From the NCBI GenBank assembly GCA_046328905.1, contig JAXLVP010000002.1, forward strand, positions 197,499 to 261,498: a DNA stretch of 64,000 nt, read 5' to 3'. A program made the position numbers and the translations under genes. Positions 2,642-36,634 of this stretch are shown piece after piece. Source of the stretch: Bdellovibrionota bacterium. GTDB lineage: Bacteria; Bdellovibrionota_C; UBA2361; SZUA-149; CAZDWZ01. The notes under the pieces were generated by a model. The model made no database searches. It worked only from the letters and a program-made list of their open reading frames with translations, and was not told where the DNA came from. Each line of letters begins with the position of its first letter. Position 1 is the stretch's first letter.

Positions 2642-2661
2642 ATGAGCCTCGTCGCGGACCA

Positions 2662-3315: not shown

Positions 3316-3316
3316 T

Positions 3317-4189: not shown

Positions 4190-4190
4190 T

Positions 4191-7977: not shown

Positions 7978-8020
7978 CTCCTTGACCGAGGTCTGTGCGC
8001 ACTCCGACGCACTCCTCCGA

Positions 8021-15790: not shown

Positions 15791-15882
15791 CAGACCTCAT
15801 AACCTCCCAATTTGATGTTTTTTCCTACTCCAAGATTCGAAAACTTGCGGGCCTTTTACCGGGCCTGTAGCTTCTAAACTGA

Positions 15883-16392: not shown

Positions 16393-16399
16393 CTTGCCG

Positions 16400-17665: not shown

Positions 17666-17941
17666 GAAACAATGGAAATGCGGCTGCTCGAGAAAGGAAA
17701 GACTTACGCTTTTGCACGATGAGAGTGTATGCGGCGCCGAGCAGGGCCGAGCAACGCGTACTCGTGCGCTGACCTGCAGGGCCTGACTTCGCGTGCGAGA
17801 TCTGTGGTTCCATCACTTACCTTCGGTTGCAATGATATGATTATGATGCAGGTTTGAAGGCTTCGGATCCCCGAAAAGATTCTCGAAATGATCAGACTCT
17901 TCAGCGAGTTACTCCCCCACGTCATGCAGCGAATGGAAACG

Positions 17942-19474: not shown

Positions 19475-19476
19475 GT

Positions 19477-20265: not shown

Positions 20266-20840
20266 AAGACTGGCGCCGCGAGCAGTGGAATAAGCTCGGA
20301 AAAGCTTGTGATAGTGTTATCCGGTGTTATTCGGTGGAGAGAAAGGTACAAGTCCTGCGCCTGTCGCGGGTCGTAGAGCACGGTTCTTACACCGGCTGAC
20401 TCTCCAGCCTTAATATCCGAAGCACGATCTCCGACAATCAACGAAGAAGCAAGGTCAATATTCAGCTCATCGGCCGCATCAATCAACATTCCGGGTTTTG
20501 GCTTCCGGCACTCACATGAACCACTCAAGCCGCGGACAGTCCCTCTCTCGTGATGATAGCAGTAGCGAACGGCATCGAAAGATATTCCTTGGGTCTCGAG
20601 AAGGCGAACGAACGCCTGCTCTATCTCCATCCGAGTTTCAACTGTCACTTTGCCAAGTGCGACATCAGGCTGATTCGATACGACAACAAGAAGGTAGCCT
20701 GCACGACGTGCAGATTGTAGGACTTCAACGATGCCGGAGACGATCCGGAGTGAATCTGGCGAGCGAACAGCCTCACCGTCGATGTCGTGAACGATCACCC
20801 CATCCCGATCCAAAAAAAGTGCCGGGCGTGCGGTCTTCAT
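20262..20840 (-). CDS. HAD-IIIA family phosphatase (GmhB / histidinol-phosphatase-like)
   Basis: LFLDRDGVI motif I, VVSNQ motif II, CxCRKPKPGM and GDRASD motifs typical of heptose-bisphosphate phosphatase-like enzymes. Confidence 0.7.
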   Translation of the reverse strand: MKTARPALFLDRDGVIVHDIDGEAVRSPDSLRIVSGIVEVLQSARRAGYLLVVVSNQPDVALGKVTVETRMEIEQAFVRLLETQGISFDAVRYCYHHERGTVRGLSGSCECRKPKPGMLIDAADELNIDLASSLIVGDRASDIKAGESAGVRTVLYDPRQAQDLYLSLHRITPDNTITSFSELIPLLAAPVL

Positions 20841-20846
20841 GACGAA

Positions 20847-21962
20847 TCACGAAGCAAGCTTTTCGACAACACCCATCGCCTGCTCGATGGTGTCGTCGAT
20901 ATCAATACCGTACCGGTAGGCACCGGCACGACCTATCGAGAAGACGTTGTCAGGCATCATCGCGAAATACTTATCCGCTTTCGCCTGCTCGAACTTCGTC
21001 GGGAAAGGATAGTGCTTTCCGTTGTCTGACGGAATCTCCATACCGATCAATGTGGTCGGCGACTTGTGATGAGTGAATTTTTTGTACTCGACGAGCCGAG
21101 TGAATTTCTCGTTGTTCGCATAGTAGAGAAAGTAAACGTTCTCCGGGAAGCTGTGCTCCACTGGAAGCACGAACGTGTGCAGGTCACGACCAAGGTAGAA
21201 GAGCTCACCGTGACAATGTTCGAAAAGGATGTCGGGTGAAATCGTGTTGATAATGACATCGAACGTTTTTTTCTCGCCCTTGATTACGACAGTCTTATTC
21301 GGAATGTCGTAATGTTCAATCTTCGTTGAGAGCAGTACTTTCGCCTGAGCAGTGCTGATGTCGAAGTATTTATTGTAGCCGTCTTCCGCGTAGGGATACG
21401 CAGAAATCGCTGTATCCCACGCAGCCCGAGGACCCTCTTTGAGCGCTACCCCTTTCGGCGACCAACTGAACGTGTCGAGGATCTTGTTATCATCGATCTG
21501 CCACATCTTCTTGCTGTACTGATTGATGTACTTGTCATACAGCGTCTGACCAACAGATCCGACCCAATAATCTTCGATGTTTTGGGCGTTCGCAACACCC
21601 TTCACGGTTCTGAGCTCTTCCTTGATCTTATCACAGTCCGGCATCCGCTCGATGTCGTCAACGTGGATCGGGAAGTTGTAAAATGCGTTGTCACGTTCGA
21701 CGTAGGTCAGAAATTGGTGGTCGGCACAAAGACGAAGCGGGCAGAAATGGTTGAGAAAGTCGTAGACGCGTCTGTTCTGCGTCAAAAAGTGTCGCGGCCC
21801 GAACGTGTAGGGGTGCCCGCCGAACCAAAAGGTCCGGACGCCCGCACCGAGGAACGGCCCTGCCTCGACGATAGTTACGTCCCAATTTTTCCCTTGAAGC
21901 GCCAACTGATGTGCGCTCGTGCAGCCGGCAAATCCGCCACCAATAATCAGAACTTTTTTCAT
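20847..21962 (-). CDS. UDP-galactopyranose mutase-like FAD-dependent enzyme (pyranose-furanose mutase family)
   Basis: Start at ATG 21962 (MKKVLIIGGGFAG, GGAGG RBS); GPRHF...VYDF and C-terminal GRAGAYRY motifs resemble UGM; the first 46 codons of the track ORF were discarded. Confidence 0.65.
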   Translation of the reverse strand: MKKVLIIGGGFAGCTSAHQLALQGKNWDVTIVEAGPFLGAGVRTFWFGGHPYTFGPRHFLTQNRRVYDFLNHFCPLRLCADHQFLTYVERDNAFYNFPIHVDDIERMPDCDKIKEELRTVKGVANAQNIEDYWVGSVGQTLYDKYINQYSKKMWQIDDNKILDTFSWSPKGVALKEGPRAAWDTAISAYPYAEDGYNKYFDISTAQAKVLLSTKIEHYDIPNKTVVIKGEKKTFDVIINTISPDILFEHCHGELFYLGRDLHTFVLPVEHSFPENVYFLYYANNEKFTRLVEYKKFTHHKSPTTLIGMEIPSDNGKHYPFPTKFEQAKADKYFAMMPDNVFSIGRAGAYRYGIDIDDTIEQAMGVVEKLAS

Positions 21963-21987
21963 GCCACCTCCCAAAATCCGCTGCGCG

Positions 21988-22758
21988 CTAAACCTTGCAC
22001 GTAATGAATGACATACCGAAGCCGCCGATGGGCAGAAACTGAGCAAACGTGAATTCGCTCCGCTCTTGCAGCTCTTTGAAAGCCTTTCCCACCCCGGCAA
22101 ACGGCGAGCCTTTGTATCCGACGTGATAGTCGTCGATATAAATCAATGTTCCCGGCTGCAAAAACGGCTCAATGAATTTGAACACCGGAACAGCGCTTTC
22201 GTAGAGGTCGCAATCAACACAAATCATGCTGGCTCGAACACCCCGTTCGAAGAGCTCGGACTGCAACTGCGAGGTAAGGCTCTTTTGATAAAAACCTTTG
22301 TACGTGTGAATTTTGTCGGTGTAAACACCCAGGCTCGTCACCAGACGACGGAATTCTTCTTCGCTGGTAGCGAGCGCGCCGGGCGTGTAGTCCGACACTG
22401 ACACTTCGTCTTCGTTTTCGATGACCGGCAAACCCTCGAAGCTATCGAAGGCGTGGAACTTCATGAAATGCATGTTCTGCCGCCGCGCTTCGCTCACCGC
22501 CATCCGAAAGGTTCTCGCGCGGTGACACCCGAACTCCATGTAGTCCCCAACAATTTCGTTCGCGTAGAGCGAATCAAACGCCTGGATGTAAAAATTGCGT
22601 TTCGTTGTTTGGCGACGCAGCTGGTTGTAAGCAATCTGCTCTTTCTCACCCCAGTTCTCGAGCTCGGCTGCAGTTCCGAGCTCAACCCACGGTTCGCCCT
22701 GGATTCCTCTTGCGGCAAACTCTTCGACCGGAACGCGTTTGTCGGATCTCATCGTCAT
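21988..22758 (-). CDS. TylF/MycF-type SAM-dependent O-methyltransferase
   Basis: IVGDYMEFGCHRARTF and ICVDCDLYES motifs typical of macrocin-O-methyltransferase-like sugar O-methyltransferases. Confidence 0.65.
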   Translation of the reverse strand: MTMRSDKRVPVEEFAARGIQGEPWVELGTAAELENWGEKEQIAYNQLRRQTTKRNFYIQAFDSLYANEIVGDYMEFGCHRARTFRMAVSEARRQNMHFMKFHAFDSFEGLPVIENEDEVSVSDYTPGALATSEEEFRRLVTSLGVYTDKIHTYKGFYQKSLTSQLQSELFERGVRASMICVDCDLYESAVPVFKFIEPFLQPGTLIYIDDYHVGYKGSPFAGVGKAFKELQERSEFTFAQFLPIGGFGMSFITCKV

Positions 22759-22760
22759 AG

Positions 22761-23903
22761 TTAATCGTTCCTGATAAAACTCACGTATTGCTGGCCCCTT
22801 CCGAAGAAGGTTTTAAAATTGTCGAAGTCGTCGGCTCCGATTCGTTCTTCGAGAAAATCGGCGGCTTCAGTAAAGGCCAATTTGGTCTGCGGCATAAACT
22901 CGTTGATGTGGGAAAGCTCCCGAATCTTCGCTGCTGCTTCGCAGTTCAGCTGGGACGGTTCCGAACTGTCCTCAATCTGTTGCATAAGCTCAAAACAGTC
23001 CTGAGCAAGACGCAAAATTCGCGTTCCGGTTTCAGGAGAGTGTGCCGGCAACTCAAACCGGTAGTCTGTCAGGTTTGCGATGTTGCTCAAGTACTGCACT
23101 TTGAGACTCGCATTGGACGTGCGTTCATCTCCGTGGAGGTCCTTATACCACCTCCAATCTTGCATAAATCGCGGGGAGCTGCCGTAGAATGTCCATCCGT
23201 CACAAACCGAATCAATCGCGTCCGTGATAGAGAAGAAACCTGCAAAATACTTGATGATGATATTGTCCTGAACCCAGTCACGGGCAGGTCGATTCATTCC
23301 CTTGAGCGTTTTCAAATGCGAGGCAAAGAACGGTTCGAGTACCTTCACCCGGTCCTCCATCGGATCCGAGAACGGGCTGAGCTTCATGGCAATCAAGCGG
23401 CGGAGCGATTCTCCAAGAAACGACGCCGAGTCTATCGATGTGCCGACGACAATGCCGCCGGGTTTCGTGAATTGCGCCACATGTCGGAAAAATGCTTTTG
23501 AATCGAGTTGAAAGGGAACCACGCCTTCACACAACACGAGATCGAAGCGGTCGGCGGTGTCGAATCGCTCGATGAGAGAGCTCACGATCTCGATGCTTTC
23601 AAACGGAACGTTATATTCGTGAAAGTTCTTCGTGAGGGTCTGAATCGCCGTCGGATTTCCGTCCACGAGAACGTAACGTGCGAGATTGAGTGAAGCCGTG
23701 AAAAGCGCGTTGTAACCCGAGCCAGGGCCGAATTCGATCACCTCGCATCCACGAAGCAACCGTGATGGAATGCCGAGATGGCGATACAAGCTCTCGCGCC
23801 GTTCAAAGTGTTTCCTCAGCGCAGAGATATCTTGTCCGACGGGAGAGATCTTGTGCGTCGTGTAGAAGTCGAGATACGGCCGTTTTTCGTTATCGTTTTG
23901 CAT
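22761..23903 (-). CDS. class I SAM-dependent methyltransferase
   Basis: Motif I VIEFGPGSGYN; 380 aa with long C-terminal extension of unknown function. Confidence 0.6.
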   Translation of the reverse strand: MQNDNEKRPYLDFYTTHKISPVGQDISALRKHFERRESLYRHLGIPSRLLRGCEVIEFGPGSGYNALFTASLNLARYVLVDGNPTAIQTLTKNFHEYNVPFESIEIVSSLIERFDTADRFDLVLCEGVVPFQLDSKAFFRHVAQFTKPGGIVVGTSIDSASFLGESLRRLIAMKLSPFSDPMEDRVKVLEPFFASHLKTLKGMNRPARDWVQDNIIIKYFAGFFSITDAIDSVCDGWTFYGSSPRFMQDWRWYKDLHGDERTSNASLKVQYLSNIANLTDYRFELPAHSPETGTRILRLAQDCFELMQQIEDSSEPSQLNCEAAAKIRELSHINEFMPQTKLAFTEAADFLEERIGADDFDNFKTFFGRGQQYVSFIRND

Positions 23904-24286
23904 CGCGAAGCGGCATCGATTCTAGGGCAAACGTAATTCCATTTGCAGCACGCAGGTGTGCCGCCCTATTCGGATGTAGGAAATCAGCAGAGTGGTTCGA
24001 CAACCCATCAAGTGTCAATTCGATGACAGTACCGCAGATCGTCGATCTCAGGCTCGATCTTCTTTGAGCGAGACCGTAGGTCGTCCGTCTCGTCACACCG
24101 AGCGCGGAAATTGACCGTTGGTGTGCGGAATCGCCTCACTGGGTCGGTAATCGATCTTATCGTTCGATTCAGACGCTCCGGATACTCAACGCGAGGCCGA
24201 ACAAGCAAAGGTACGCCGAACCCAAGCCGCGCTTTCGCTCATCTTTTAAAGAGGATTAGTCCCGCAAAACTGGTGAGTTTTTTCGT
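23904..24286. promoter_or_regulatory. divergent intergenic region (putative promoters for the methyltransferase operon and the radical-SAM operon)
   Basis: 383-bp gap between divergently transcribed operons; no convincing small precursor-peptide ORF inside. Confidence 0.3.
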
Positions 24287-25450
24287 ATGGACGCAGTCGG
24301 CAACAGCAGCGTCACGCAGATGGATCAAGATATTTCCCCAGACAGACTGCGAGCGCTTCCGTCTCCACTCCCCGCGGACGGACGCGAAGCTTACACGCGT
24401 GAACGAGAGCTCGCGTTGGCGTATTCCTCGCGCCGTCGAGAGAACTACGAGCGCTATCTCGCCTCAAATCGTCGCAGCGCGACCGTCGACTACCTGCCCA
24501 TCGTGCTCGACATCGAAAACGTTTCGCGGTGCAATTTTCGCTGCATCATGTGCATCACGAACGATTTCAAGAAGGGCAAACGCGCCAGAGACATGTCCGT
24601 TGACGAGTTCAAGCGGCTGATCGACGAGCAGTATGGTTTGGTCGAAATCAAGCTGCACGGCATCGGAGAGCCGCTCTTACAAGGCGATGATTTCTTCGAA
24701 ATGGTTCGCTACGCACGTGCTCAGCATATCTGGGTGCGAACGGTAACGAATGCATCTCTTCTTCACCGCCGGGACAATTACAAAAAGCTTGTCGACAGCG
24801 ACATCAACGAGATTCAGATCTCAATCGACGGAGCGGACAAGGAAGTTTATGAGCGCATCCGCCGCCTGGCAGATTTTGAGCAGGTCACGGCCAACTGCAA
24901 ACTCATCAACCAATACAGCCGGAGCGCGGGCAAGCTTCGGACAAAGATGTGGACCGTAGTGCAGCGAGAGAACGTACACCAGCTCGAAGCTCTTGTTGAT
25001 CTCGCGCACGAGCTTGGATTCTCCAATCAAGTTTTTTCACTGCAGGTGCATGCGTGGGGATCGGAAGAGCTCGCGCAAAGGAACCACGACGCGCAGACAG
25101 ATGACATACTCAGCGAGCGTCGCTTGTTGGCCCTCGTGGATCGGGGACAGCGGCTCGGAGTCGACGTTCGATTTTGGAATATCACCAAGAAGTACAGCTC
25201 GGACGCTCCAGAGACACTTTGCCCTTGGCCCTTCGAACGCGCTTTTATCGGCTCTGATGGAAGAACAGTTCCCTGTTCGATGATTGCCAACCCGGATGTT
25301 TCAGAGATTGGTCGGGGGAAGAGCTTCCTCGAAAATTGGACCGGGGAGGAGTATCGCACGTTCCGCGAGGCTCATATCAAGGGAGATATCCCGTCCATCT
25401 GCAAAGAATGCTACCTCCACAATGAACGCACCAAGGAATCTGCGCAATGA
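24287..25450 (+). CDS. radical SAM enzyme with C-terminal SPASM-like Cys-rich domain
   Basis: CNFRCIMC (CxxxCxxC) radical-SAM cluster motif; C-terminal additional cysteines (CPWPF...GRTVPC...CKEC) consistent with auxiliary Fe-S clusters; an in-frame Met 11 codons downstream is an alternative start. Confidence 0.75.
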   Translation: MDAVGNSSVTQMDQDISPDRLRALPSPLPADGREAYTRERELALAYSSRRRENYERYLASNRRSATVDYLPIVLDIENVSRCNFRCIMCITNDFKKGKRARDMSVDEFKRLIDEQYGLVEIKLHGIGEPLLQGDDFFEMVRYARAQHIWVRTVTNASLLHRRDNYKKLVDSDINEIQISIDGADKEVYERIRRLADFEQVTANCKLINQYSRSAGKLRTKMWTVVQRENVHQLEALVDLAHELGFSNQVFSLQVHAWGSEELAQRNHDAQTDDILSERRLLALVDRGQRLGVDVRFWNITKKYSSDAPETLCPWPFERAFIGSDGRTVPCSMIANPDVSEIGRGKSFLENWTGEEYRTFREAHIKGDIPSICKECYLHNERTKESAQ

Positions 25451-26598
25451 CCCTCATCCCGATCGACGAATACAATCGCAGCGAGCAGGCCGCCCTGACG
25501 AGCGCGAGCAATCGATATCGTGAAGCTTTCGCTCCCTCTCACTTCAGCTCATTCGGATATCCGTCGCGCGTCGTAGACGAAAACGAGCTCTACAATTTTG
25601 TCGATGTAATGCAAGAGCGCCGCTTCGACTACTACTTCGATTCAGTCCTCGGTGCCCTCACGGAAGAGGAGTTTGAAAAGTACCGCTTTCTTTCCTCTGC
25701 GGTAGCCGAGCTCTGCAAGAAGCGTTTCGGGAAGCCGGGCTGCGGTAAGAGCGCCATCGCCCACAGCATCAACGTCTTACGACATATTCAGTTCGTGACG
25801 AACAATCAGTCCGCTCGCGTATTTGAGATAGGCCCCGGATGCGGATACCTCGGCGCGCTACTCACCGGCTCCAATTACCGATACATGAGCTACGATGTTA
25901 CTCAGGCATTCTATCTTTATCAGAACCGCCTGCTGTCTCATCTGTATGGTTCGCGGCTGGTCGAAGTCGCGACTGGGGGGCTTTCAGGAAAACATATTGA
26001 ACATCTCTTGAGTGGCGAGGCCGGCTTCTTACCAGCGATCCACCTTCCGTGGTGGGAGGCGATGCGCCTGCCGCAGGGCCATATTCCAACGGTGGATATC
26101 GTCACATGCAATCACGTCTTGTGCGAGATGCACTATATGAGCTTATCATTCATGGCGAAGCTCTGCCGCTTGATGCTCGAAGGGTCTTCGGGTCCTCGGC
26201 TCGTTGTCTTCGAAGGTTGGGGATGGCATGCAACGAATCGCCTCTCGACAGTAGTTGGGGAGCTTTACAGGCACGGATTCGTGCTCGCGCACCAGGACCC
26301 TCACATATCGGTTCTTGCCCTTCGCGCAGACGTAAATGCCGGGCAATTTCCGGAAGTCGGTGCCGCAGTTGATACGCACGGGATTAACTGGAGTGCCGGC
26401 AAGTGCTTCGTCGAAGAAGGCGTGAAGCCGTTTGACGGCCCCGCGATAGGTCGTAAGCTCGCCGAGTCTCGAGAGCGGCTGAGGAGTCGACAAACCGTTT
26501 CGAAAGAGATCGTCAGAAATCACCTGGTGTCGCTCGTCGGCGAAAATGGTCTCACGACCGAAGATGAGCATTTCTTAAACTTCATTGAGCACCCGTAA
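25447..26598 (+). CDS. putative SAM-dependent methyltransferase (class I-like)
   Basis: VFEIGPGCGYLG motif I, acidic post-I residue (YMSYD), DIVTCNHVL motif II; start overlaps upstream stop. Confidence 0.5.
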   Translation: MTLIPIDEYNRSEQAALTSASNRYREAFAPSHFSSFGYPSRVVDENELYNFVDVMQERRFDYYFDSVLGALTEEEFEKYRFLSSAVAELCKKRFGKPGCGKSAIAHSINVLRHIQFVTNNQSARVFEIGPGCGYLGALLTGSNYRYMSYDVTQAFYLYQNRLLSHLYGSRLVEVATGGLSGKHIEHLLSGEAGFLPAIHLPWWEAMRLPQGHIPTVDIVTCNHVLCEMHYMSLSFMAKLCRLMLEGSSGPRLVVFEGWGWHATNRLSTVVGELYRHGFVLAHQDPHISVLALRADVNAGQFPEVGAAVDTHGINWSAGKCFVEEGVKPFDGPAIGRKLAESRERLRSRQTVSKEIVRNHLVSLVGENGLTTEDEHFLNFIEHP

Positions 26599-26600
26599 GC

Positions 26601-27830
26601 ATGGCCACCGCTGCAAAGATCAAATCAGACGAGAAGCTTGCGATTCACGGCGGTACACCGGTTCGTTCGACCAAGATGCCCGCGCGCTTCGCTTTCGGGC
26701 CGGATGAAGAAGCGATGCTGATGGAATGCATCCGTTTCTATCGTGAGCGCGGCGAAGATCCCGGTTATCAATCGTTTTACGAAGATAAATACTGCGACGA
26801 GTTCGCTCGCTACCAGGGCGGCGGATATGCCGACGGCGTAAGCTGCGGCACTGCGGGTGTGTTCGTTGGGCTGAGAGCGCTCGATCTGCCACCGGGCAGC
26901 GAGGTCATCATATCTCCGGTGACCGACAGCGGTCCACTTGGCGCGATTATTCTTCAGGGATTCGTGCCAGTCGTCGCTGATGCGGCGGTGAACAGCTTCA
27001 ACATGGGCGTCGAACAGTTCCTTGCGCGAATCACTCCACGCACCTCTGCGCTCGTAGCAATTCATGCGGGAGGTGAGCCACTCGAGATCGATCGCATTGT
27101 CGAGGAAGCTCACAAACGCGGGATCAAAGTTCTCGAAGATTGCAGCCAGGCAACGGGCGGCTCTTGGAAAGGAAAGAAGGTCGGGACGTTTGGCGACATC
27201 GCGGCATTCTCGACCATGTATCGCAAGAACTTGGCCGCGGGCGGGAGCAGCGGAATTCTTTACACCACGGATCACGATCTTTACCAAAAGGCGCAGGGCC
27301 ATGCCGATCGCGGAAAGCCGGTATGGAAACGGCACGAGCTTGATCTGCGGAATCCGGGATATGCAGCATTTCCCGCTCTGAATTTCAACACGGACGAGTT
27401 CCGCTGCGCAGTCGGTCTCGCTTCGCTTCGCCGTCTCGACGAGTGCAACGAGAAACGGAAGGCGTTCCTCCGACGACTGCTTCCACGCATGAAAGAGGAA
27501 TGCAGCTCGCTCACCCCATTCAACTTCCACGAGGGCTTCTCGCCATTTTATTTCCCGATACTCGTTGACGAATCCCAACTGACCTGCACCAAGCTCGACT
27601 TTGCGAGAGCTGTGGCAGCGGAAGGGATCGGACTTGGAGACCACTACGGATGCCTGGTGAGCACCTGGCCCTGGGCGCAGGAGTATCTTTCCGACGACTT
27701 CGTCACGGTGAACGCTATCAGTGCACGCGATCGATCGTTCAATCTGTACGTGAACGAATGCTACGGCGAACAAGAGGTCGAGGATTGCATCGCCGCATTC
27801 TCGAAAGTAGAACGACATTATTCTAGGTAA
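26601..27830 (+). CDS. DegT/DnrJ/EryC1/StrS-family PLP-dependent sugar aminotransferase
   Basis: VLEDCSQATGG ... FGDIAAFSTMYRKNLAAGG block with the PLP lysine context typical of this family. Confidence 0.8.
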   Translation: MATAAKIKSDEKLAIHGGTPVRSTKMPARFAFGPDEEAMLMECIRFYRERGEDPGYQSFYEDKYCDEFARYQGGGYADGVSCGTAGVFVGLRALDLPPGSEVIISPVTDSGPLGAIILQGFVPVVADAAVNSFNMGVEQFLARITPRTSALVAIHAGGEPLEIDRIVEEAHKRGIKVLEDCSQATGGSWKGKKVGTFGDIAAFSTMYRKNLAAGGSSGILYTTDHDLYQKAQGHADRGKPVWKRHELDLRNPGYAAFPALNFNTDEFRCAVGLASLRRLDECNEKRKAFLRRLLPRMKEECSSLTPFNFHEGFSPFYFPILVDESQLTCTKLDFARAVAAEGIGLGDHYGCLVSTWPWAQEYLSDDFVTVNAISARDRSFNLYVNECYGEQEVEDCIAAFSKVERHYSR

Positions 27831-27849
27831 TTGCTGACAGGAGCGGGCT

Positions 27850-28674
27850 ATGTCGGTCTTCGAAACGTTCATTGATCCGAACGAAGAAGCGCTCGGAAAC
27901 AAATTTCTCACGCAGGGCTATCTCAATCACCCGGTAGACAATCGTTCGGCACTCGATGCGCTGCGACACGCAATTGTGGAGATTGTCGCTGAACATATCG
28001 GAGCGCCTCTTCCGAAGGACGAAGCGCATTTCTTGAACTTCGTTCATGAGCAGGTGCCGGTTGAAAAGCTGAACGATATGCGACTCAAGGTGTTCAGTAA
28101 GATGAACGCCATTCCGTGGTTCAAACCGACGTATTACGGCCTCGCCAAATCAGCGCTCGACGCCGTCGTGGGAAATGAGCTCGCGATGCAGAGCAGCGTC
28201 AACCTTTCGGTCCAATATCCGAATGACAGAAGCTCGCTCCTCAGCGTACATGCTGATACCTGGTCAGAAGAGTCTCCCTTCCAAGTCGTCGCTTGGCTCC
28301 CTCTCGTTGACGTCTACGACACCAAGGCGATGTATCTGCTCAGTCCGGAGAAGAATCGCACGGTGAACAAGCGACTTCGGGACATTTCAAAAACGGGCGG
28401 ATCGGACAAGCTCTTCGAAGCATATGAGAAGGATTTCGAATGGGTAAAGGTCCCGTACGGAAACGTGCTCGTGTTCTCACCGAACTTGCTTCACGGAAAC
28501 GTTGTGAACGTGACTCCTGAGACGCGCTGGTCGATGAACGTCCGCTTCAAAGGCCTTTTCACTCCGTACATGAGCGAAGAAAAGAAGCTGGGGGATTTCT
28601 ATCTCCCGATTACGACTAAGGTCGTCACTCGCGTCGGCATCAACTACAAAGTGCCGGAGGGATTCGATGAGTAG
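27850..28674 (+). CDS. PhyH-like Fe(II)/2-oxoglutarate-dependent oxygenase (putative)
   Basis: HxD (LSVHADTW) ... distal His (LLHGNVV) ... Arg (RWSMNVRF) arrangement compatible with the 2OG-oxygenase facial triad. Confidence 0.5.
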   Translation: MSVFETFIDPNEEALGNKFLTQGYLNHPVDNRSALDALRHAIVEIVAEHIGAPLPKDEAHFLNFVHEQVPVEKLNDMRLKVFSKMNAIPWFKPTYYGLAKSALDAVVGNELAMQSSVNLSVQYPNDRSSLLSVHADTWSEESPFQVVAWLPLVDVYDTKAMYLLSPEKNRTVNKRLRDISKTGGSDKLFEAYEKDFEWVKVPYGNVLVFSPNLLHGNVVNVTPETRWSMNVRFKGLFTPYMSEEKKLGDFYLPITTKVVTRVGINYKVPEGFDE

Positions 28675-29128
28675 TACAGCTTCAGCTCGAAACGTCCTTC
28701 AGGGCTATGTCGTGAACGTCGCGTTCGGCAATTTGCGCGTCCCGGCGCCGATGCAAAACCTCATGTTGCGTGACTACGCGGCGAAGAATAACCTGATGTT
28801 CAAGCTCTCTGTCGGCGAATACTCGTTCCCGGGGTGTTACCTCCAGCTTGAAGGGTTGTATCCCCTCCTTCGGACCATTGAAGGGATTGGGATGTGCAGC
28901 ATGTTCATGCTTCCCAAGCATGAAGAGCGACGACGTCTTGTCTACCAGAAATGTATCGAGGCTGGTGCTGCGATCCACCTACTCCTCGAGAAGGTCGTCA
29001 TCCGTGATTGGACGACCGTAGAGCGCGTCGAGGATGTGCTGCGGTTTCATCGGGCGATTGCACAGAGCCCGACGACGATTCCGACGGAGCTGTTGCCGAA
29101 ACTGCCAGTCCCTGATTGTTTCACCTGA
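28667..29128 (+). CDS. hypothetical protein (operon member, unknown function)
   Basis: 153-aa ORF whose start overlaps the upstream stop; no recognisable motif. Confidence 0.4.
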   Translation: MSSTASARNVLQGYVVNVAFGNLRVPAPMQNLMLRDYAAKNNLMFKLSVGEYSFPGCYLQLEGLYPLLRTIEGIGMCSMFMLPKHEERRRLVYQKCIEAGAAIHLLLEKVVIRDWTTVERVEDVLRFHRAIAQSPTTIPTELLPKLPVPDCFT

Positions 29129-29134
29129 GGAAGT

Positions 29135-29608
29135 ATGGTCACGGACGTTGTCACCCGCCTTGCAACCGCAGACGACCGCACCGCGTTGTGGGAATGGTAC
29201 CGCGACCCTGTTCGCTATTCTTTCTTCAAGACACAACCGGCCGTCACGAAAGATCAAAGCCGAACGTGGTTTAATCAGTTCCTAACGTCTAACCAGCGCA
29301 CTCGACTTTACGTTGTCCTTGTCGACATTATCCGCATTGGTTTTGTTCGACTGGAGCTGGTCCGTCCGGACGAATTTGAAGCAACAATCTTCATCCGCCC
29401 TCCCTATCTTGGGAAGGGTTTCGTCCCGAGAGCGTTAATCTCAGCGACATCGGAGTTAAGAAAGCATCGGCCCGGTGCACGCGTGTTTGCAAACGTTCGA
29501 CGATCGACTCCACAAGCCGAGCAGCTTTTCGCGAGCGATGAATTCTTCACTGAGCCGCACGGTGACAGCGCTTTTCGCGTAAATGTAATCCAAGGAGCCC
29601 TTCGATGA
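29135..29608 (+). CDS. GNAT-family N-acetyltransferase (putative)
   Basis: IFIRPPYLGKGFVPRAL resembles GNAT motif A (acetyl-CoA binding loop). Confidence 0.45.
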   Translation: MVTDVVTRLATADDRTALWEWYRDPVRYSFFKTQPAVTKDQSRTWFNQFLTSNQRTRLYVVLVDIIRIGFVRLELVRPDEFEATIFIRPPYLGKGFVPRALISATSELRKHRPGARVFANVRRSTPQAEQLFASDEFFTEPHGDSAFRVNVIQGALR

Positions 29609-30300
29609 AGATCCTTCTTTTGGGACCACTTTGGCGGAACGCTCCGATCCGCGACTTCTTGCAATCGAAGGGGAACGAAGTTGAGTGCACGGGCGAGCCG
29701 ATCACGCTAGACTTTGCTCAAAGCAAACACATTGAATTCATCATTAGCAGCGGTTACGGGCCGATCATTCGACCGGAAGTGGTTCACGCATTCCCGAGAA
29801 GAGTGATCAACCTGCATGCGACATATCTGCCCTACGGTAAGGGCATCGGCACTACGTTCTTTTCCGTTTTTGAAGGTACGCCGACGGGGGTGTCGATCCA
29901 CTACATCGACGAGAAGATTGATACCGGTGACGTGATTGTGCGGCGACTGGTTCCTTATTCATCTGGCGATACTCTGCGCACGTTCTACGGGAAGCTGCTT
30001 GCCGCAACTGAACAGCTCTTTCGAGACACCTGGGATCAAATTGCTGCGTCGACTAATCCGACGATTCCTCAACGGACGTTTGAGCTGTCGGTCCCCTATC
30101 GTAGCCGTGTCGACTCTGAGCGGTTCATGGACCTGCTTCCCCTTAAATGGGATACACCGCTCACAACCGTAGAGGCGATGGGGGCCGAGTTTTTCTGCTC
30201 TGAGAATTTTTGGTTGAGGTTCGAAGCGGATATTGTCCCTGCCGGAGCATCCGAAGCAACAGTATCCGCAAGCACCGACCGGCTCAAACCAGGGAGCTAA
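29605..30300 (+). CDS. formyltransferase-family protein (sugar N-formyltransferase-like)
   Basis: INLHATYLPYGKG (N-x-H ... LP) and IDTGDVI motifs match the Fmt/PurN-type formyltransferase catalytic core. Confidence 0.65.
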   Translation: MKILLLGPLWRNAPIRDFLQSKGNEVECTGEPITLDFAQSKHIEFIISSGYGPIIRPEVVHAFPRRVINLHATYLPYGKGIGTTFFSVFEGTPTGVSIHYIDEKIDTGDVIVRRLVPYSSGDTLRTFYGKLLAATEQLFRDTWDQIAASTNPTIPQRTFELSVPYRSRVDSERFMDLLPLKWDTPLTTVEAMGAEFFCSENFWLRFEADIVPAGASEATVSASTDRLKPGS

Positions 30301-30331
30301 CCCTGCCCCAACTGACGAAATCGGGGCAAGG

Positions 30332-30880
30332 TCAAACGAAAATATACTCGTGCACGCATCTGTACGCGATATTTGTGTTTTCGGCTGAGCTCGCATTGGC
30401 AAATTCACCGACACCCGCGTATAAACACGAACCGTTACCTACCACCGGCACTTGCATGTGCTGTGTGCCGGAGGCGCTGTCATATTCAAGTATTGAGAAA
30501 TTGCTAGCCCATTCAAAACCATTGGTCATATTAATGAGCCCGGTCGGAGATAGCTGACAGGCAATCTTAAATTCGACTGGCTCTGGAAGTCGCTTTCCCA
30601 GCGAAGCACAATTTTGACGGCAATCCTCCCAAGCAATACCCGATCCGGAACTTTCGTCCTTATCGATACAAAATCCCGTCGGACCACCCGTTCCTCCAGC
30701 GCCGACTGGAACAAACACTTCGGACGAAGCACAATTATTAATGTGCGGATGGAAAAGCCCGTTGTCCTTCATTTCTTGATTGATCATGTCCGAGCCAGCC
30801 GCTTGCGCCCAACTGCACGCAGGAACAACCAAACAAACCGCACCTATTAGAACTAAAGCTGCAAATGTCGTCCGTTTCAT
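30332..30880 (-). CDS. small secreted Cys-containing protein, paralog B (possible DUF1566/Lcl-like lectin-fold domain)
   Basis: Signal peptide (AALVLIGAVCLVVPACSWA), GGAGG RBS; conserved blocks shared with paralog A (GIAWEDC..C...GKRLPEP.EFKIACQLS). Confidence 0.65.
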   Translation of the reverse strand: MKRTTFAALVLIGAVCLVVPACSWAQAAGSDMINQEMKDNGLFHPHINNCASSEVFVPVGAGGTGGPTGFCIDKDESSGSGIAWEDCRQNCASLGKRLPEPVEFKIACQLSPTGLINMTNGFEWASNFSILEYDSASGTQHMQVPVVGNGSCLYAGVGEFANASSAENTNIAYRCVHEYIFV

Positions 30881-31017
30881 AGGTCCTCCATTGAATCGTA
30901 AAAAACTGCCCGCCGGGCCGAATTTAAATCACATATGCGGCTCGCCGCATGGCAAAAGTTTGCGACATTACCGATAATTACGACATCTAATGAGCTTATA
31001 ACCGACATTACCGACTT

Positions 31018-32982
31018 ATGCTCAGCTCCATCTACGACTACAAAACCCAGCTAACGAAACTCGCAGATGAGTTGCTTGCTCGCGGCGAGGTGACGGAAGC
31101 CGAGTTCATTTTGCGTCGAATGGTGGAACACTATCCTTCCCTTGGTGAAGGCTGGCGGCGCCTCGCGAACGTCTTGGTGAAGCTCGAGCGGTTCGACGAG
31201 GCAGAGGAGACTATCGCGCGCGCCTGTGCAATCGATCCTCATGATGCAGAATCGTACCTTGTAAAATGCTCTCTCGTGGAAAAGCTCCGCGGTGAACAGG
31301 AAGCTGAGAAGCTGCTCAGGGCTGGAGTTGCTGGTCGTGAGCAGTGGTGGAAAGTCCGAGTCGCCCTCGCACAGCTACTCGTTCGAACGGGGCGTGAGGC
31401 AGAGAGCGAATCGATTCTCCAGTCCCTGCTCGATGAGCAGTGGGACGCGGATATTGCTGCAGACCTTGCAGGCGTCAAGCTTCGCCTTGGCAAGCTTGCG
31501 GAAGCGCAAGCTCTCATCGTTCGATTCTCGAGTGAGGGCGCCGCGCCACAGAAACTATTCGATACCGCACGCGCGCTCGTCGAAGCAAAAGCTCACGATG
31601 CAGCATGGCAGTTCATTCAAGCCCTGCTTGGTGCAGGGATTATCGACGAACAGGTTTTCCAGTCGCTCGGTGAGCTGCTGACGCAGATTCACGGTCCCGA
31701 ATCAGGACTTCAGTTTTTTGAGAGCGTGCTCAAGCAAAGCAACAGCAAGAACTTGCGCGAGTCAGCGGTAAACGCCGCCGTTGAAACTCGCGCACCGGCG
31801 TTGATTTCGCTGAGCTCGAAGCGCCGCGCCGTCTTCGTGGCTGAGATTCCTAAGGTCCGAGAGACCAAGCTCGCGGCCGGACTACGCGCGTTCGGATGGG
31901 AGGTAATTCTCCTCTGCAAGAAGGCGCCCGACTACGATATCTCGCTTTATTTCGACGCGATGATTCCCTTCGGGACTGCGGAAGAAGCGCAGTATCTCGC
32001 TCGTCGTCTCCATGCGAGCATCTTTCATGTGTTCGCCTCCGCGGTTGATGAAACTGCTCTTTCGTTCATCAAAGACAAACCGGGGGTCACTTTGTTCGAC
32101 GTCACCGATGTGTTCGACGGCATGATCTACGAGCACCCGGCGCTCATGGAAGCGCAGCGCTATTGTTTCCTGAACGCAGACGGGCTTGTTTGCCGCGACC
32201 TCCAAACAAACTTGCCGCTCAAGCGCGCAGGTCTTTCGCGGCCGAAGCACACCCTGTTCTTTCCAGAATTCTGCTGGAACACGACTCCGAAAATCGTCGA
32301 CCGCCCGGGACCAGAGCTCCATATTGTCCAAGCGGGATGGATCGATCTTCAGGGAAAAACCGAACGTAAAGAAAGCAGCGCCTTTGACCTCTTCCAGGCG
32401 TTTGCTCAAGCCGGAATCCACGTACATCTCTACAAGCACATGCTCTTCGGCGATGCAGATCCTAGAACGCTGTACGGAGATTTGTACGAGCTACAGATGC
32501 AGTACGGCTGCGTCCACATCCACCAGACCGTACCGGTGAACCGTATCTGCAGCGAGCTGACGCAGTACCATATCGGGATGAACATCGCAGCACACACCGT
32601 CTTCATGAGCCGTGAGACGAAGCACTCCAAGAATGCGTATCACTTCTCGCTTTGCGGCTCCTCGCGAAATGTCGACTATTTGGAGGCCGGCCTTCCTGTC
32701 CTGCAAAGCGCAGACCTTACGTTCCAAAAGTTTATGCTCAAACGGATGGGAGTTGGATTCCCACTCAAGAAGCAACACCTGAACGATCTGAAAAACTATC
32801 TATCGCAGTATAATTCGCGTGAGGCTCGGGAGAAGATCTATTCTCGCAGGGAGAAATACTCGGTCGCATCACAGTCACATCGGCTGGCTTCGTTTTACGA
32901 CGCATGCTTGGGATATACCGAGCCGGTCAAGGAAAGGGCTTTCGACGTGAACGTTATCCCTTCATTCCCACCCTTCGCTTGA
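31018..32982 (+). CDS. TPR-repeat protein with C-terminal GT-B-like (glycosyltransferase-like) domain
   Basis: N-terminal about 250 aa with TPR-like helical repeats; C-terminal region with GT-B-like features (VDYLEAGLPVL); architecture reminiscent of TPR-glycosyltransferases. Confidence 0.45.
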   Translation: MLSSIYDYKTQLTKLADELLARGEVTEAEFILRRMVEHYPSLGEGWRRLANVLVKLERFDEAEETIARACAIDPHDAESYLVKCSLVEKLRGEQEAEKLLRAGVAGREQWWKVRVALAQLLVRTGREAESESILQSLLDEQWDADIAADLAGVKLRLGKLAEAQALIVRFSSEGAAPQKLFDTARALVEAKAHDAAWQFIQALLGAGIIDEQVFQSLGELLTQIHGPESGLQFFESVLKQSNSKNLRESAVNAAVETRAPALISLSSKRRAVFVAEIPKVRETKLAAGLRAFGWEVILLCKKAPDYDISLYFDAMIPFGTAEEAQYLARRLHASIFHVFASAVDETALSFIKDKPGVTLFDVTDVFDGMIYEHPALMEAQRYCFLNADGLVCRDLQTNLPLKRAGLSRPKHTLFFPEFCWNTTPKIVDRPGPELHIVQAGWIDLQGKTERKESSAFDLFQAFAQAGIHVHLYKHMLFGDADPRTLYGDLYELQMQYGCVHIHQTVPVNRICSELTQYHIGMNIAAHTVFMSRETKHSKNAYHFSLCGSSRNVDYLEAGLPVLQSADLTFQKFMLKRMGVGFPLKKQHLNDLKNYLSQYNSREAREKIYSRREKYSVASQSHRLASFYDACLGYTEPVKERAFDVNVIPSFPPFA

Positions 32983-33031
32983 AATCAGCGATTTCCCGCT
33001 CGGAGAAGCTAGAATAGGGCTAAAACCTTCG

Positions 33032-33907
33032 CTACACCCGCTCCAGGAGATACCCGGATACAATATGTCCAAGCATGCGGACGGTCACCTCGAAGTAGCC
33101 CCCGCGGCCGGCGCCTGAGGGAACGTATATGTGTTTCTGTGCCCGGACGTTTCCGGCGTCGGCACCTACGATGGCCACCGTTCTTGCGCCCTGCTTGTTC
33201 GCTTGATCGAGCGCTCTTCGAACGCTGTTCGATTTGCCTCGGGCAGATATTCCGATCACGAGGTCGTTCTGCTCGAGCTCCGCTTTGAGCTGCTTCACGA
33301 ACGCAAACTCGTACCCCGGATCTTCCACGCTTGGAGCTTGCTCTTCAACTTCGTCGTTGAGGCACGTTACGGTGAACGGGGCGGTGACCGCAGTGATGAG
33401 GTCATTCGTGAGAAGAGACGCGAGATGCGCACCCGAGGCGTCGCCGCAAATGAAGATGCGATTGCCGTTCTCCTTCGCGGTGGCGATTACTTGCGCGAGA
33501 GCGCCGATTTCAGACGCGCGAAGCCCGTGCAGTGCTTTGCCGATGCTGGAGAGGTAGCCGGTGAGATAGTCTTGGAACTTTCCTTCCGAGGCCGGCTTCT
33601 CTTTCGGTAGCTCTCGCTCGATGAGGGTAAGCGCAGCTCGGCGCTTCGAAATGCTTTTCACGTCTGCGTTGGACCGAACGAGCAGCACCTGCGCACCCGC
33701 CCTCTTCAGCTCGCGGAATGACGTTTCGAGCTCGCGCCGATCGGCGGAGCGTCGAACCAGGAGTGGCCCGTTATCGAAGATTCCGTCGAGCTCGAAGATG
33801 CGAGAGATGGCATGGCCACGAAGGGCTTTCGCAACCCTCTCCTTCGAATCCTCGGCATCATCGCGAACACCTTCCAATATCAGCTCAAAGCAATCGGAAC
33901 TCTTCAT
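33032..33907 (-). CDS. SIS-domain sugar-phosphate isomerase (GmhA-like) with about 100-aa N-terminal extension
   Basis: C-terminal SIS motifs (IFICGDASGAHLASL; LVIGISARGKSNSV; VAIVGADAGN); N-terminal domain unassigned. Confidence 0.6.
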   Translation of the reverse strand: MKSSDCFELILEGVRDDAEDSKERVAKALRGHAISRIFELDGIFDNGPLLVRRSADRRELETSFRELKRAGAQVLLVRSNADVKSISKRRAALTLIERELPKEKPASEGKFQDYLTGYLSSIGKALHGLRASEIGALAQVIATAKENGNRIFICGDASGAHLASLLTNDLITAVTAPFTVTCLNDEVEEQAPSVEDPGYEFAFVKQLKAELEQNDLVIGISARGKSNSVRRALDQANKQGARTVAIVGADAGNVRAQKHIYVPSGAGRGGYFEVTVRMLGHIVSGYLLERV

Positions 33908-34137
33908 GAGGCAACCTTGGGAAAACGTTTCTGAAACCAGCCAAGCTAAGAGGCTGAATGGTTTAGATGCACTGAAACCGTGCTCGAATTCCGATTATTT
34001 GCAGTGGCCGATTGAGGCTGAATCAAACTCGCCGGACATGCGAAAAAGCATACATACAGGGCCTGGATTTTAGCATCAGTATCAGACCTACGATAAAGTG
34101 GCGTCTGGAGGCGTTCTCCGCTAGGTAATCGGACACT
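33908..34137. promoter_or_regulatory. divergent intergenic region (putative promoters)
   Basis: 230-bp gap between the SIS gene (-) and wecB-like gene (+). Confidence 0.25.
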
Positions 34138-35241
34138 ATGCTGAAAGTAATCAATATCGTCGGCGCACGGCCGAACTTCATGAAAATTGCCCCGCTTGTC
34201 AGGGCATTTGGCGAAAGCCCCGTTTTTGAGCAGCGGCTGGTTCATACTGGGCAGCATTACGATCCAGGGCTGTCGGACATATTTTTTCAGGAGCTTGGCA
34301 TCCCGGCGCCGGACGTGGCGCTCGGCGTCGGCTCTTTTCCTCGAGAAGAGCAGATCGCAAAGATTGAAGAGCTCTTCGAACCGGTGCTCGTGAAAGAGCA
34401 GCCGGACCTCGTTCTCGTCGTCGGCGACGTGAATTCAACTGTCGCGTGCGCTCGTGTGGCCCGCAAACACGATGTGAAGGTCGCGCACGTCGAAGCAGGG
34501 TTGCGAAGCTTCGATCTCAGAATGCCGGAAGAGCACAATCGTATCGCAACCGACAAGATCTCGGATTTCCTCTACGTGACTGAGCAGGCCGGACTCGAGA
34601 ACTTGGCGCGAGAGCAAGTTCCCGGACGAGCGGAGCTCGTCGGCAACGTCATGATCGATACGCTCGTGTATCAACTCGAACGGGCACGAAAGACGACAAA
34701 GCTGTCCGAGCTTGGGCTTACGCCTGGCAGCTACATTGTTTCCACTTTCCATCGACCGAGCAATGTCGACTCGCGGGAGACTCTCGAGAAGCTACTCGAG
34801 ATTCTCGAGCTCGTGACTTCATTCGGCTCTCTCGTACTGCCTCTCCACCCGCGAACTCAGCACTCGATGGAGTCTTTCGGGCTGGCCGATCGGCTTCGCG
34901 GAATCGAGAATCTTCACCTGACACCTCCACTCGGCTACCTGGATTTCATCGGGTTGGTCGCGAGCGCGAAGGCCGTCGTGACTGACTCCGGCGGCATCCA
35001 AGAAGAGACGACGTATCTCGGTATTCCATGCCTAACGATGCGTGAGAATACCGAGCGCCCAGTCACTATCGACCTCGGCTCGAACATGCTCATCGGCTCG
35101 GACCTCAACAAGCTTCGCACCGAGCTCGAAAGGATTAAGTTGGGACGCTACAAGAAAGGTGCGATCCCTCCGCTCTGGGATGGCCACGCAGCAGAGCGGA
35201 TCGTCCGCGACCTCGCCGCACAGCTGAAGAAAAGGAACTAG
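34138..35241 (+). CDS. wecB: UDP-N-acetylglucosamine 2-epimerase (non-hydrolysing, WecB/MnaA family)
   Basis: Hallmark motifs GARPNFMKIAPL, HVEAGLRS, TDSGGIQEE; 367 aa. Confidence 0.85.
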   Translation: MLKVINIVGARPNFMKIAPLVRAFGESPVFEQRLVHTGQHYDPGLSDIFFQELGIPAPDVALGVGSFPREEQIAKIEELFEPVLVKEQPDLVLVVGDVNSTVACARVARKHDVKVAHVEAGLRSFDLRMPEEHNRIATDKISDFLYVTEQAGLENLAREQVPGRAELVGNVMIDTLVYQLERARKTTKLSELGLTPGSYIVSTFHRPSNVDSRETLEKLLEILELVTSFGSLVLPLHPRTQHSMESFGLADRLRGIENLHLTPPLGYLDFIGLVASAKAVVTDSGGIQEETTYLGIPCLTMRENTERPVTIDLGSNMLIGSDLNKLRTELERIKLGRYKKGAIPPLWDGHAAERIVRDLAAQLKKRN

Positions 35242-35242
35242 C

Positions 35243-36526: not shown

Positions 36527-36634
36527 GGCCCGCCTGCCCTATGATCCAACTCATACCGCATGGGAGCTGAGCATCTATATTCGGGGCTTTACTTGCGTTA
36601 GTGCGTTTCGCACCCCCGGCACGGGTCTCCCCTC

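Follow-up and report, generated by a model that had tools for sequence, protein, structure and literature searches.

What does a radical S-adenosylmethionine (SAM) enzyme with a SPASM-like C-terminus act on when the genes around it encode sugar-modifying enzymes and no peptide substrate is apparent? This question is raised by a string of seven genes, g1 to g7, in a Bdellovibrionota metagenome-assembled genome (MAG), of which a 64,000-nt stretch was analysed (the window, in whose positions all features are given here). A preliminary description had presented the string as an operon led by the radical SAM enzyme, g1, with all seven products acting in a single amino-sugar pathway. Our results suggest that g1 is very probably a sugar-tailoring enzyme of the twitch type, and that the conserved partners of g1 are encoded elsewhere in the window.

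The seven genes are co-directional on the plus strand within 24287-30300, as in the open reading frame (ORF) list of the window. Successive junctions of -4, +2, +19, -8, +6 and -4 nt agree with the tight packing described earlier, as do the three stop/start overlaps at 25447, 28667 and 29605. The ORFs are real, since homologues of all seven are found elsewhere, and they are probably co-transcribed. A promoter and terminator scan of 23500-31200 gave motif counts at chance level and was uninformative, and an Rfam scan of 17000-37000 found no family.

g1 matched the Pfam models Radical_SAM (73 bits) and SPASM (33 bits), and its motif CNFRCIMC at residues 82-89 contains the CX3CX2C signature of the radical SAM superfamily (C82/C86/C89), which holds the SAM-cleaving [4Fe-4S] cluster in a partial TIM barrel. 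The cysteines of the g1 family were surveyed in 73 aligned sequences, 119 database homologues and 48 genomes. Besides C82/C86/C89, the invariant cysteines were C312, C330, C372 and C375, which were retained without exception in the 73 aligned sequences, the 119 homologues and the 48 genomes. These are the only four cysteines after residue 300 in the window protein, and C331 is the only other conserved cysteine in the C-terminal part of the family. A two-cluster SPASM enzyme is defined by a C-terminal motif of seven to eight cysteines that includes CX2CX5CX3C. Because the CX2CX5CX3C motif was not found in the g1 family and the C-terminus has only four cysteines, g1 falls outside this definition; the match to the Pfam SPASM model is explained by the scope of that model, which takes in twitch domains too. 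A twitch is a truncated SPASM domain that binds a single auxiliary cluster (PMC9012708). When a profile of the C-terminal 90 residues of g1 was searched against the PDB, the sole match was BtrN (E 0.0024), and the four invariant cysteines of g1 aligned to BtrN C169, C187, C232 and C235 (numbering counted from the start of the alignment). The auxiliary cluster of BtrN has four cysteine ligands (PMC9012708). From these alignments, the C-terminal domain of g1 is a BtrN-like twitch domain for which one fully cysteine-ligated auxiliary [4Fe-4S] cluster is predicted. The Cys-rich, SPASM-like C-terminus of the preliminary description thus stands as a Pfam match and becomes, in detail, a four-cysteine twitch rather than a two-cluster SPASM domain. 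Carbohydrate substrates are already known for twitch radical SAM enzymes, and g1 appears to be a new member of this carbohydrate-acting class. The earlier surprise at a SPASM enzyme without a peptide is removed by this one-cluster assignment.

The remaining conserved cysteine, Cys331, directly follows the ligand C330 and is present in 117 of the 119 homologues and in all 48 other genomes. It aligns to Phe188 of BtrN. In the window protein this residue is serine (codon at about 25277-25279), as it otherwise is only in the homologues P0002 and P0019.

More than 1000 database relatives of g1 were found at E<=1e-10, the closest of them 71% identical, in Alphaproteobacteria, Acidobacteriota, Verrucomicrobiota, Chlamydiota, Bdellovibrionota and others; a search of a plasmid collection gave no match. 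P0025 (491 aa) was considered as an informative g1 fusion and set aside, as its extra N-terminus looks like an over-called start. P0008, a 64%-identical homologue, is on a 10.5-kb contig of an archaeal MAG (Candidatus Nitrosotalea sp.), an attribution that reflects either horizontal transfer or a binning artefact.

We then weighed whether g1 could be a peptide, protein or cofactor maturase, such as an enzyme for RiPPs (peptides that are made on ribosomes and modified post-translationally), one like the anaerobic sulfatase-maturating enzymes (anSME) or a metallocofactor enzyme, that lies in a sugar locus by chance. The Pfam SPASM match would fit such an enzyme. So would the top NCBIfam matches, to the tungsten-cofactor (110 bits) and mycofactocin (83 bits) maturases, and the presence of SuiB, SkfB and CteB among the top structural matches, which also include DesII. 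However, none of the 60 NCBIfam families reached its cut-off with g1. The best score, for the tungsten-cofactor maturase, compares with a cut-off of 380; mycofactocin was far below its own; PqqE, AhbD, MoaA and other maturase equivalogs were likewise below theirs, and even the generic twitch model N_Twi_rSAM scored 92 bits against 170. The housekeeping-family assignment that could have overturned a sugar reading was therefore not obtained. The four C-terminal cysteines leave none for a second auxiliary cluster. In the AlphaFold 2 (AF2) model of g1 (predicted local distance difference test, pLDDT, 92.7), residues 1-70 form helices only (18-22, 33-46 and 48-60). The winged helix and three-stranded sheet of a RiPP recognition element (RRE) were not seen there, and no Pfam domain matched this region; the model thus argues against a peptide-binding N-terminus of the RRE type. 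Sulfatase and glycyl-radical partners were also missing.

The search for a precursor peptide gave the same answer. No credible small ORF was found in the intergenic region 23904-24286 or downstream of the string. In a survey of the window and 54 loci, extending <=1.2 kb either side of the radical SAM gene, no small-ORF family was common to unrelated lineages; the small ORFs that recurred were either shadows of genes close by, in an alternate frame or antisense, or restricted to closely related Bradyrhizobium loci. In many loci the radical SAM gene abuts its neighbours. The RiPP reading was rejected accordingly, and the earlier statement that no precursor ORF lies nearby holds for the window and across lineages. 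One observation in favour of a maturase is that P0019, a Ser331 homologue, has a 51-aa ORF next to it and no sugar context. With so much on the other side, we regard a maturase as extremely improbable.

The P0019 neighbourhood (L059, 4545-8574) is described here in its own right. It comprises histidine kinase/response regulator genes, a 483-aa flavoprotein, the 51-aa ORF, a Tll0287-like protein, the radical SAM enzyme and a 112-aa protein without assignment. None of the other neighbourhoods viewed offers such a possible hint of another substrate for this radical SAM family.

To identify the partners of g1 in other genomes, we scanned one genome per species with the g1 family alignment, which gave 51 loci, and compared 34 window proteins with 48 radical SAM loci by tblastn (Table 1). 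Of the 48 loci, 37 had one or more orthologues of the sugar genes in the window. Together with the missing precursor peptide and the lack of a housekeeping-family assignment, these sugar neighbourhoods support a sugar rather than a peptide substrate, as had been proposed. The most frequent partners were the flavoenzyme GLF, which resembles UDP-galactopyranose mutase (UGM), the small methyltransferase MT228 and the two parts of a split transketolase, TK_N and TK_C. In 13 loci GLF and the radical SAM gene were <=0.2 kb apart; in 10, TK_C was at a distance of 0.8-1.0 kb from the radical SAM gene. Two architectures were apparent. In one, typical of Rhodospirillales and related loci, the UGM-like gene adjoins the radical SAM gene. 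In the other, the order is radical SAM, TK_C, TK_N, MT228, UDP-glucose dehydrogenase (UGDH)-like, Gfo, HldE-like, short-chain dehydrogenase/reductase (SDR) and SIS-transaldolase; it was carried by Bradyrhizobium-type loci and by three unrelated MAGs, and it matches that of window genes 909-10569. In the window, the counterparts of the conserved partners form a block 14-23 kb upstream of g1, with the mutase on the opposite strand. The partners that are conserved best, at 909-10569 and 20847-21962, are not among the genes of 24287-30300.

SDR genes were the commonest class of neighbour (26 loci) and often lay directly upstream of a GLF-radical SAM pair. A methyltransferase gene often stood immediately 3' of the radical SAM gene, from families that varied between OMT3, FkbM, the g2 family and C-methyltransferases; in L004 and L035 a g2 homologue adjoined the radical SAM gene or lay close by. 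Further recurrent neighbours were epimerases/dehydratases (SDR), B12-radical SAM enzymes, APH-type kinases, a transaldolase and methyltransferases of five kinds. One locus, L023, from a record entitled Frankia sp. RB7, had the gene order and identity pattern of the Bradyrhizobium loci, with shared genes for a TonB receptor, PepSY-like and rhodanese-like proteins, the radical SAM enzyme, SDR and Gfo, among others; the record may be mislabelled or the assembly contaminated.

The genes that directly follow g1 behaved differently. Four relatives, L054, L055 and two JGI contigs, were found through homologues of g2 and g5. L054 and L055 hold orthologues of g3-g7, GLF, the HAD-type phosphatase, the TylF-type methyltransferase, the methyltransferase MT380 and g2 at 37-85% identity. 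Among the relatives, identity to the window was 74% for DegT, 62-67% for the formyltransferase, 64-73% for the 2-oxoglutarate (2OG) oxygenase, 64-66% for the LIC12192 protein, 84-85% for the UGM-like protein and 45-58% for g2, and a tetratricopeptide repeat (TPR) protein of about 650 aa was also encoded there. No radical SAM gene was present within 10 kb or within the contig in any of the four. Cassette genes were 74-85% identical in relatives, compared with 71% for the best relative of g1, which fits an absence of g1 from the L054 and L055 lineages without being proof of it. L055 instead carries a 4,6-dehydratase-like SDR and an RmlC-like isomerase; the window had no match to the latter, and its only match to the former was SDR 8021-9022, at 21% identity. 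The order of genes also differs, with GNAT and formyltransferase after the g4-g5 pair in the window and before it in the relatives. Because the g3-g7 set occurs without a radical SAM gene and the partners of g1 lie elsewhere, the g1-g7 string is, on comparative gene content, a mosaic of a module 1 (g1 and g2) and a module 2 (g3-g7).

The alternative is that g1-g7 is one dedicated pathway, in which g1 takes the founding step and the other six act in sequence to make a single N-formyl/N-acyl, methylated amino sugar. Tight packing with three overlaps suggests co-transcription, and all seven products are sugar-type enzymes. Elsewhere, the DegT gene adjoins the radical SAM gene in L028 and L034, and in L057 an operon GLF-GNAT-DegT-radical SAM was seen in which the DegT and radical SAM genes overlap; in L034, GNAT and formyltransferase genes come after the radical SAM gene. 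Against this, the unit is not conserved, with each of g2-g7 present in only one to nine of the 48 radical SAM loci (Table 1), its latter part stands without a radical SAM gene in the four relatives, and the conserved partners of g1 are located elsewhere. A radical SAM-led seven-gene pathway, as originally envisaged, is therefore unlikely. The end product foreseen with it, a methylated and possibly hydroxylated amino sugar with an N-formyl/N-acyl group, is a reasonable prediction.

The products of g2-g7 were assigned by profile searches, and the earlier domain calls for the DegT, GNAT and formyltransferase proteins, like that for the radical SAM enzyme, were borne out. g2 itself matched no Pfam or NCBIfam model. 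Its family has an invariant ExGxGxG (E127/G129/G131/G133) in 38 sequences, of which 16 matched Methyltransf_12 (best E 4e-7), so that g2 is a putative class-I-like methyltransferase, a name that applies at the level of its family. g3 matched DegT_DnrJ_EryC1 (PF01041; E 6e-53, 181 bits) and has the pyridoxal phosphate (PLP) lysine of DegT aminotransferases, in place of the histidine of pyridoxamine phosphate (PMP) dehydratases, in FSTMYRKNLAAGG, with an S-x4-K motif; it reached no NCBIfam equivalog cut-off, and its orthologues in both L054 and L055 are 74% identical. g4, described earlier as PhyH-like, scored under the Pfam cut-off for PhyH (E 0.0014) and well above that for TIGR04324 (319 bits against 150), and an HxD...H iron-binding motif can be read in its sequence. 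g5, previously a 153-aa protein without assignment, was placed in TIGR04323 (116 bits against 55), which like TIGR04324 is a computationally defined family; a resolvase-like alpha/beta fold is predicted for it. The NCBI name of a protein identical to g5 is also LIC12192 family, and an NCBI Bdellovibrionota MAG (tag U0136_15150) encodes identical counterparts of both g2 and g5. g4 and g5 are adjacent, with an 8-nt overlap, among carbohydrate enzymes, as is characteristic of the 'sporadic carbohydrate cluster', and the pair recurs with DegT, GNAT and formyltransferase genes in L054 and L055, where the cassettes differ in having no radical SAM gene. Our literature search for 'sporadic carbohydrate cluster', TIGR04323, TIGR04324 or LIC12192 found no paper naming them. 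g6 matched Acetyltransf_3 (E 8e-9). g7 matched Formyl_trans_N (PF00551; 59 bits, covering only model positions 75-177) and has the motifs INLHATYLP and IDTGD (N-x-H...D); its best sugar-formyltransferase equivalog scored 55 bits against 238, and a weak match to dTDP-4-amino-4,6-dideoxyglucose formyltransferase was seen. It is probably a sugar N-formyltransferase.

The string belongs to a larger unit. Judged by its gene content, 79-36526 is one glycan-biosynthesis locus of at least 36 kb that contains g1-g7. The UGM-like flavoenzyme starts at MKKVLIIGGG (21962) rather than at the listed TTG at 22100. It scored 101 bits against a TIGR00031 cut-off of 304, and it is therefore better described as a relative of UGM, probably with another nucleoside diphosphate (NDP)-sugar substrate; we presume it to be an NDP-sugar pyranose/furanose mutase. 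Such mutases, for example HS41.17, are known from Campylobacter capsule loci (PMC12369002). As there, the window flavoenzyme belongs to a surface-glycan locus and has nucleotidyltransferase and SDR genes close to it; unlike here, no radical SAM partner is described for them, and our literature search found no paper pairing a radical SAM enzyme with a furanose mutase. The trio of nucleotidyltransferase, HAD phosphatase and GLF is conserved in L054 and L055.

The partner set of the g1 family resembles a pathway to a heptose or octose in nucleotide-activated form. The lincosamide GDP-octose/GDP-lincosamide pathway, which leads from pentose phosphate to GDP-octose and then to the 6-amino sugar, uses LmbR, N, K, O, M, L, Z and S, with enzyme roles as given in PMC12945683. 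Compared at the level of domain families only, the window has counterparts for most of these functions, with a transaldolase and SIS isomerase, an HAD phosphatase, a nucleotidyltransferase, an SDR epimerase, UGDH-like and Gfo-type enzymes and a DegT aminotransferase, and this parallel suggests a nucleotide-activated heptose or octose as substrate. The window PfkB kinase would presumably fill the kinase step of that pathway. Beyond what the lincosamide genes provide, the window encodes a radical SAM enzyme, a UGM-like mutase, a split transketolase and many methyltransferases, and its kinase is of the PfkB type and fused to a cytidylyltransferase. In this unusual fusion the cytidylyltransferase precedes the kinase, the reverse of E. 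coli HldE. The joining of a SIS isomerase to a transaldolase is a second unusual fusion.

BtrN offers the closest model for the reaction itself. It is the 2-deoxy-scyllo-inosamine dehydrogenase of butirosin biosynthesis, the prototype twitch enzyme, and has an aminotransferase partner. g1 resembles it in having a radical SAM core with a twitch domain, in the equal spacing of the four aligned cysteines and in the DegT-family aminotransferase encoded nearby; BtrN likewise acts on a carbohydrate-like alcohol. The two differ in size (387 aa against about 250), are only about 16-22% identical, and g1 has a 70-aa helical N-terminal extension; Cys331 of the family stands where BtrN has Phe188. The g1 family occurs in Gram-negative surface-glycan loci rather than an aminoglycoside cluster, and its substrate is presumably nucleotide-activated. 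BtrN catalyses the two-electron oxidation of an aminocyclitol alcohol to an amino-ketone (PMC9012708). A second model is EpeE (YydG), a twitch-type radical SAM epimerase in which a free cysteine is the hydrogen-atom donor and a serine variant slows quenching (PMC13012085). The g1 family is similar in combining one predicted auxiliary cluster with one conserved non-ligand cysteine. Sugar-acting examples of such cysteine-donor twitch epimerases are HygY and NeoN.

We propose, with about even confidence, that g1 provides an optional radical step within the two-module mosaic, acting on a nucleotide-activated heptose or octose; that the step is an oxidation or epimerisation at a carbinol carbon is put forward more tentatively. 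g1 would reductively cleave SAM, and the resulting 5'-deoxyadenosyl radical would take a hydrogen atom from the NDP-sugar at a carbinol carbon, with the sugar probably in the furanose form made by the mutase. Two fates are then conceivable for the substrate radical: oxidation to a ketone by way of the auxiliary cluster, on the model of BtrN, or quenching by Cys331 from the opposite face to give an epimer, on that of EpeE. Ser331 in the window protein would favour the keto outcome, and the keto sugar could then undergo transamination by DegT, N-formylation or N-acylation by g7 or g6, and methylation by g2 and neighbouring enzymes. Substrate, attacked position, outcome and order of steps are here those that we infer.

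A number of findings weigh against this proposal. Eleven of the 48 loci had no sugar partner within reach; six of these (L007, L009, L016, L024, L027 and L031) comprise 14-21 kb of sequence and carry transporters or regulators instead. A DegT gene was found with the radical SAM gene in no more than about five to seven loci, so that a keto-to-amine hand-off is not the general role of the family. L028 and L034, with adjacent DegT genes, retain Cys331, and the other Ser331 variants, P0002 and P0019, are in uninformative or non-sugar contexts; on both counts the idea that Ser331 tracks with an adjacent DegT gene was rejected. The sequence match to BtrN is weak at E 0.0024, the lincosamide parallel is one of domain families only, and all activity assignments in the g1 family are predictions.

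Other chemistries on sugars were weighed alongside. g1 could be a radical lyase that works like AprD4 or DesII, as a dehydratase of 1,2-diols or as a deaminase, making a deoxy-keto sugar for reduction by an SDR or transamination by DegT. The abundance of SDR neighbours, often directly upstream of GLF-radical SAM pairs, and the appearance of DesII among the structural matches would agree with this, and a keto product would account for SDR and DegT neighbours alike; we judge this alternative improbable. Formation or rearrangement of a C-C bond in a higher-carbon sugar, by carbocyclisation or ring contraction of a substrate supplied by the transaldolase and transketolase, is very improbable. With four cysteine ligands, the cluster would lack an open iron site such as that of MoaA (PMC9012708), no known producer of higher sugars was among the loci found, and this alternative is a matter of pure inference. 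A bolder form of our own proposal is that the g1 family is an unrecognised radical step toward C7-C10 sugars of Gram-negative surfaces, most members being Cys331 hydrogen-donor epimerases, with Ser331 in the window as a ketone-forming switch that feeds the DegT/formyltransferase cassette. Its substrate may be a furanose NDP-heptose or NDP-octose, made by a transaldolase/kinase/phosphatase route by analogy with lincosamides and extended by the split transketolase. We consider this a long shot; if true, the Ser331 switch would be a natural example of one residue re-routing radical sugar chemistry.

What the sugar might decorate was also considered. The sister cassette without a radical SAM gene in L054 (1-3722) lies beside fliM/N/O/P/Q/R, and in L036, from a Magnetococcales MAG, two flagellin genes (15322-16666) are about 7 kb from the radical SAM gene. 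No flagellar genes are present in the window. Together with the recurrent TPR protein of about 650 aa, these genes raised glycosylation of flagellin or another protein as the target, which is a weak lead. Flagellin glycosylation was set aside as an assignment, since flagellin genes occur only in L036 and fliMNOPQR only beside L054. The window TPR protein is a possible glycan-transfer or target-recognition component. A link to bradyrhizose was likewise dropped as speculation: the genes for that sugar are not known (PMC4743980), and the hits included no Bradyrhizobium of the photosynthetic kind.

Among the other genes of the locus, the trio of PEP-utilising-enzyme-like, APS kinase and GDSL-family proteins hints at phosphorylated, sulfated or O-acylated sugars, and none of the three co-occurs with the radical SAM gene elsewhere. 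The ORF of the TIGR04372 glycosyltransferase shares 268 nt with the nucleotidyltransferase gene; it is probably over-extended at its 5' end, with the true start later. A 182-aa Cys-rich protein with a signal peptide and no family match is encoded between the formyltransferase and TPR genes (30332-30880, minus strand) and was absent from all related loci. The locus further includes methyltransferases at its beginning and TPR proteins between the SIS+transaldolase fusion and the PEP-utilising-enzyme-like protein. After g1-g7 come genes for another SIS protein, for a UDP-GlcNAc 2-epimerase and for a GT4 glycosyltransferase.

Table 1. Features of the glycan locus in the window and occurrence of their homologues at the 48 radical SAM loci.
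Feature	Position	Strand	Basis or remark	Loci of 48	Identity
TK_C	909-1823	-	Pfam	21	median 60%
TK_N	1820-2680	-	Pfam	22	median 61%
MT228	2662-3348	-	Pfam	26	median 63%
SDR	3317-4243	-	Pfam	8	45%
UDP-glucose-dehydrogenase-like (UGDH-like)	4191-5483	-	Pfam	13	median 48%
Gfo/Idh/MocA (Gfo)	5480-6394	-	Pfam	14	median 53%
HldE-like cytidylyltransferase+PfkB	6391-7977	-	Pfam	15	median 53%
SDR (SDR333)	8021-9022	-	Pfam	17	median 63%
SIS+transaldolase fusion	9193-10569	+	Pfam	11	median 57%
Phosphoenolpyruvate (PEP)-utilising-enzyme-like (803 aa), adenosine 5'-phosphosulfate (APS) kinase (169 aa) and GDSL-family protein (421 aa)	13379-17665				
TIGR04372 glycosyltransferase ORF, 600 aa	17942-19744		overlaps nucleotidyltransferase gene		
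Sugar-1-phosphate nucleotidyltransferase	19477-20265	-			
GmhB-like HAD phosphatase	20262-20840	-			
UGM-like flavoenzyme (GLF)	20847-21962	-	Pfam GLF 108 bits and NAD_binding_8	26	median 58%
TylF-type O-methyltransferase	21988-22758	-	L055 orthologue 69%		
MT380, class I methyltransferase, 380 aa	22761-23903	-	L055 orthologue 52%		
Divergent intergenic region, MT380 operon (-) and g1 (+), 383 nt	23904-24286				
g1, radical SAM enzyme with twitch-type C-terminal domain, 387 aa	24287-25450	+	Pfam, NCBIfam, alignments, AF2 model		
g2, class I SAM-methyltransferase-like, unnamed family, 383 aa	25447-26598	+	family motif; 4-nt overlap with g1 stop	9	
g3, DegT/DnrJ/EryC1-family PLP sugar aminotransferase, 409 aa	26601-27830	+	Pfam	5	
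g4, 2OG-Fe(II) oxygenase, sporadic carbohydrate cluster (TIGR04324), 274 aa	27850-28674	+	NCBIfam	4	
g5, LIC12192-family sporadic carbohydrate cluster protein (TIGR04323), 153 aa	28667-29128	+	NCBIfam	4	
g6, GNAT N-acyltransferase, 157 aa	29135-29608	+	Pfam Acetyltransf_3	1	
g7, formyltransferase-domain protein, 231 aa	29605-30300	+	Pfam Formyl_trans_N	1	
TPR protein with C-terminal domain of no assigned family, 654 aa	31018-32982	+	homologues in L054, L055 and four radical SAM loci		

To our knowledge, nearly all examples of radical SAM enzymes acting on carbohydrates come from antibiotic pathways, and the g1 family, in its cell-surface glycan loci, has no studied member. Operon adjacency in one genome had misidentified the real partners of g1, and the seven-gene string is an idiosyncratic assembly of modules of known type. 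A SPASM maturase that lacks a peptide would have been a greater surprise than g1, which is a good lead for enzymology, with cultured carriers available: Azospirillum rugosum and Skermanella aerolata, whose orthologues have Cys331, Paramagnetospirillum caucaseum and Bradyrhizobium manausense. If its reaction were known, widespread unannotated glycan genes would be easier to interpret: those for the split transketolase and the UGM-like mutase, those of the HldE-like/Gfo/UGDH-like block and those of the sporadic carbohydrate cluster. Work on this family could also bring to light new sugars on bacteria from the environment and from plants.

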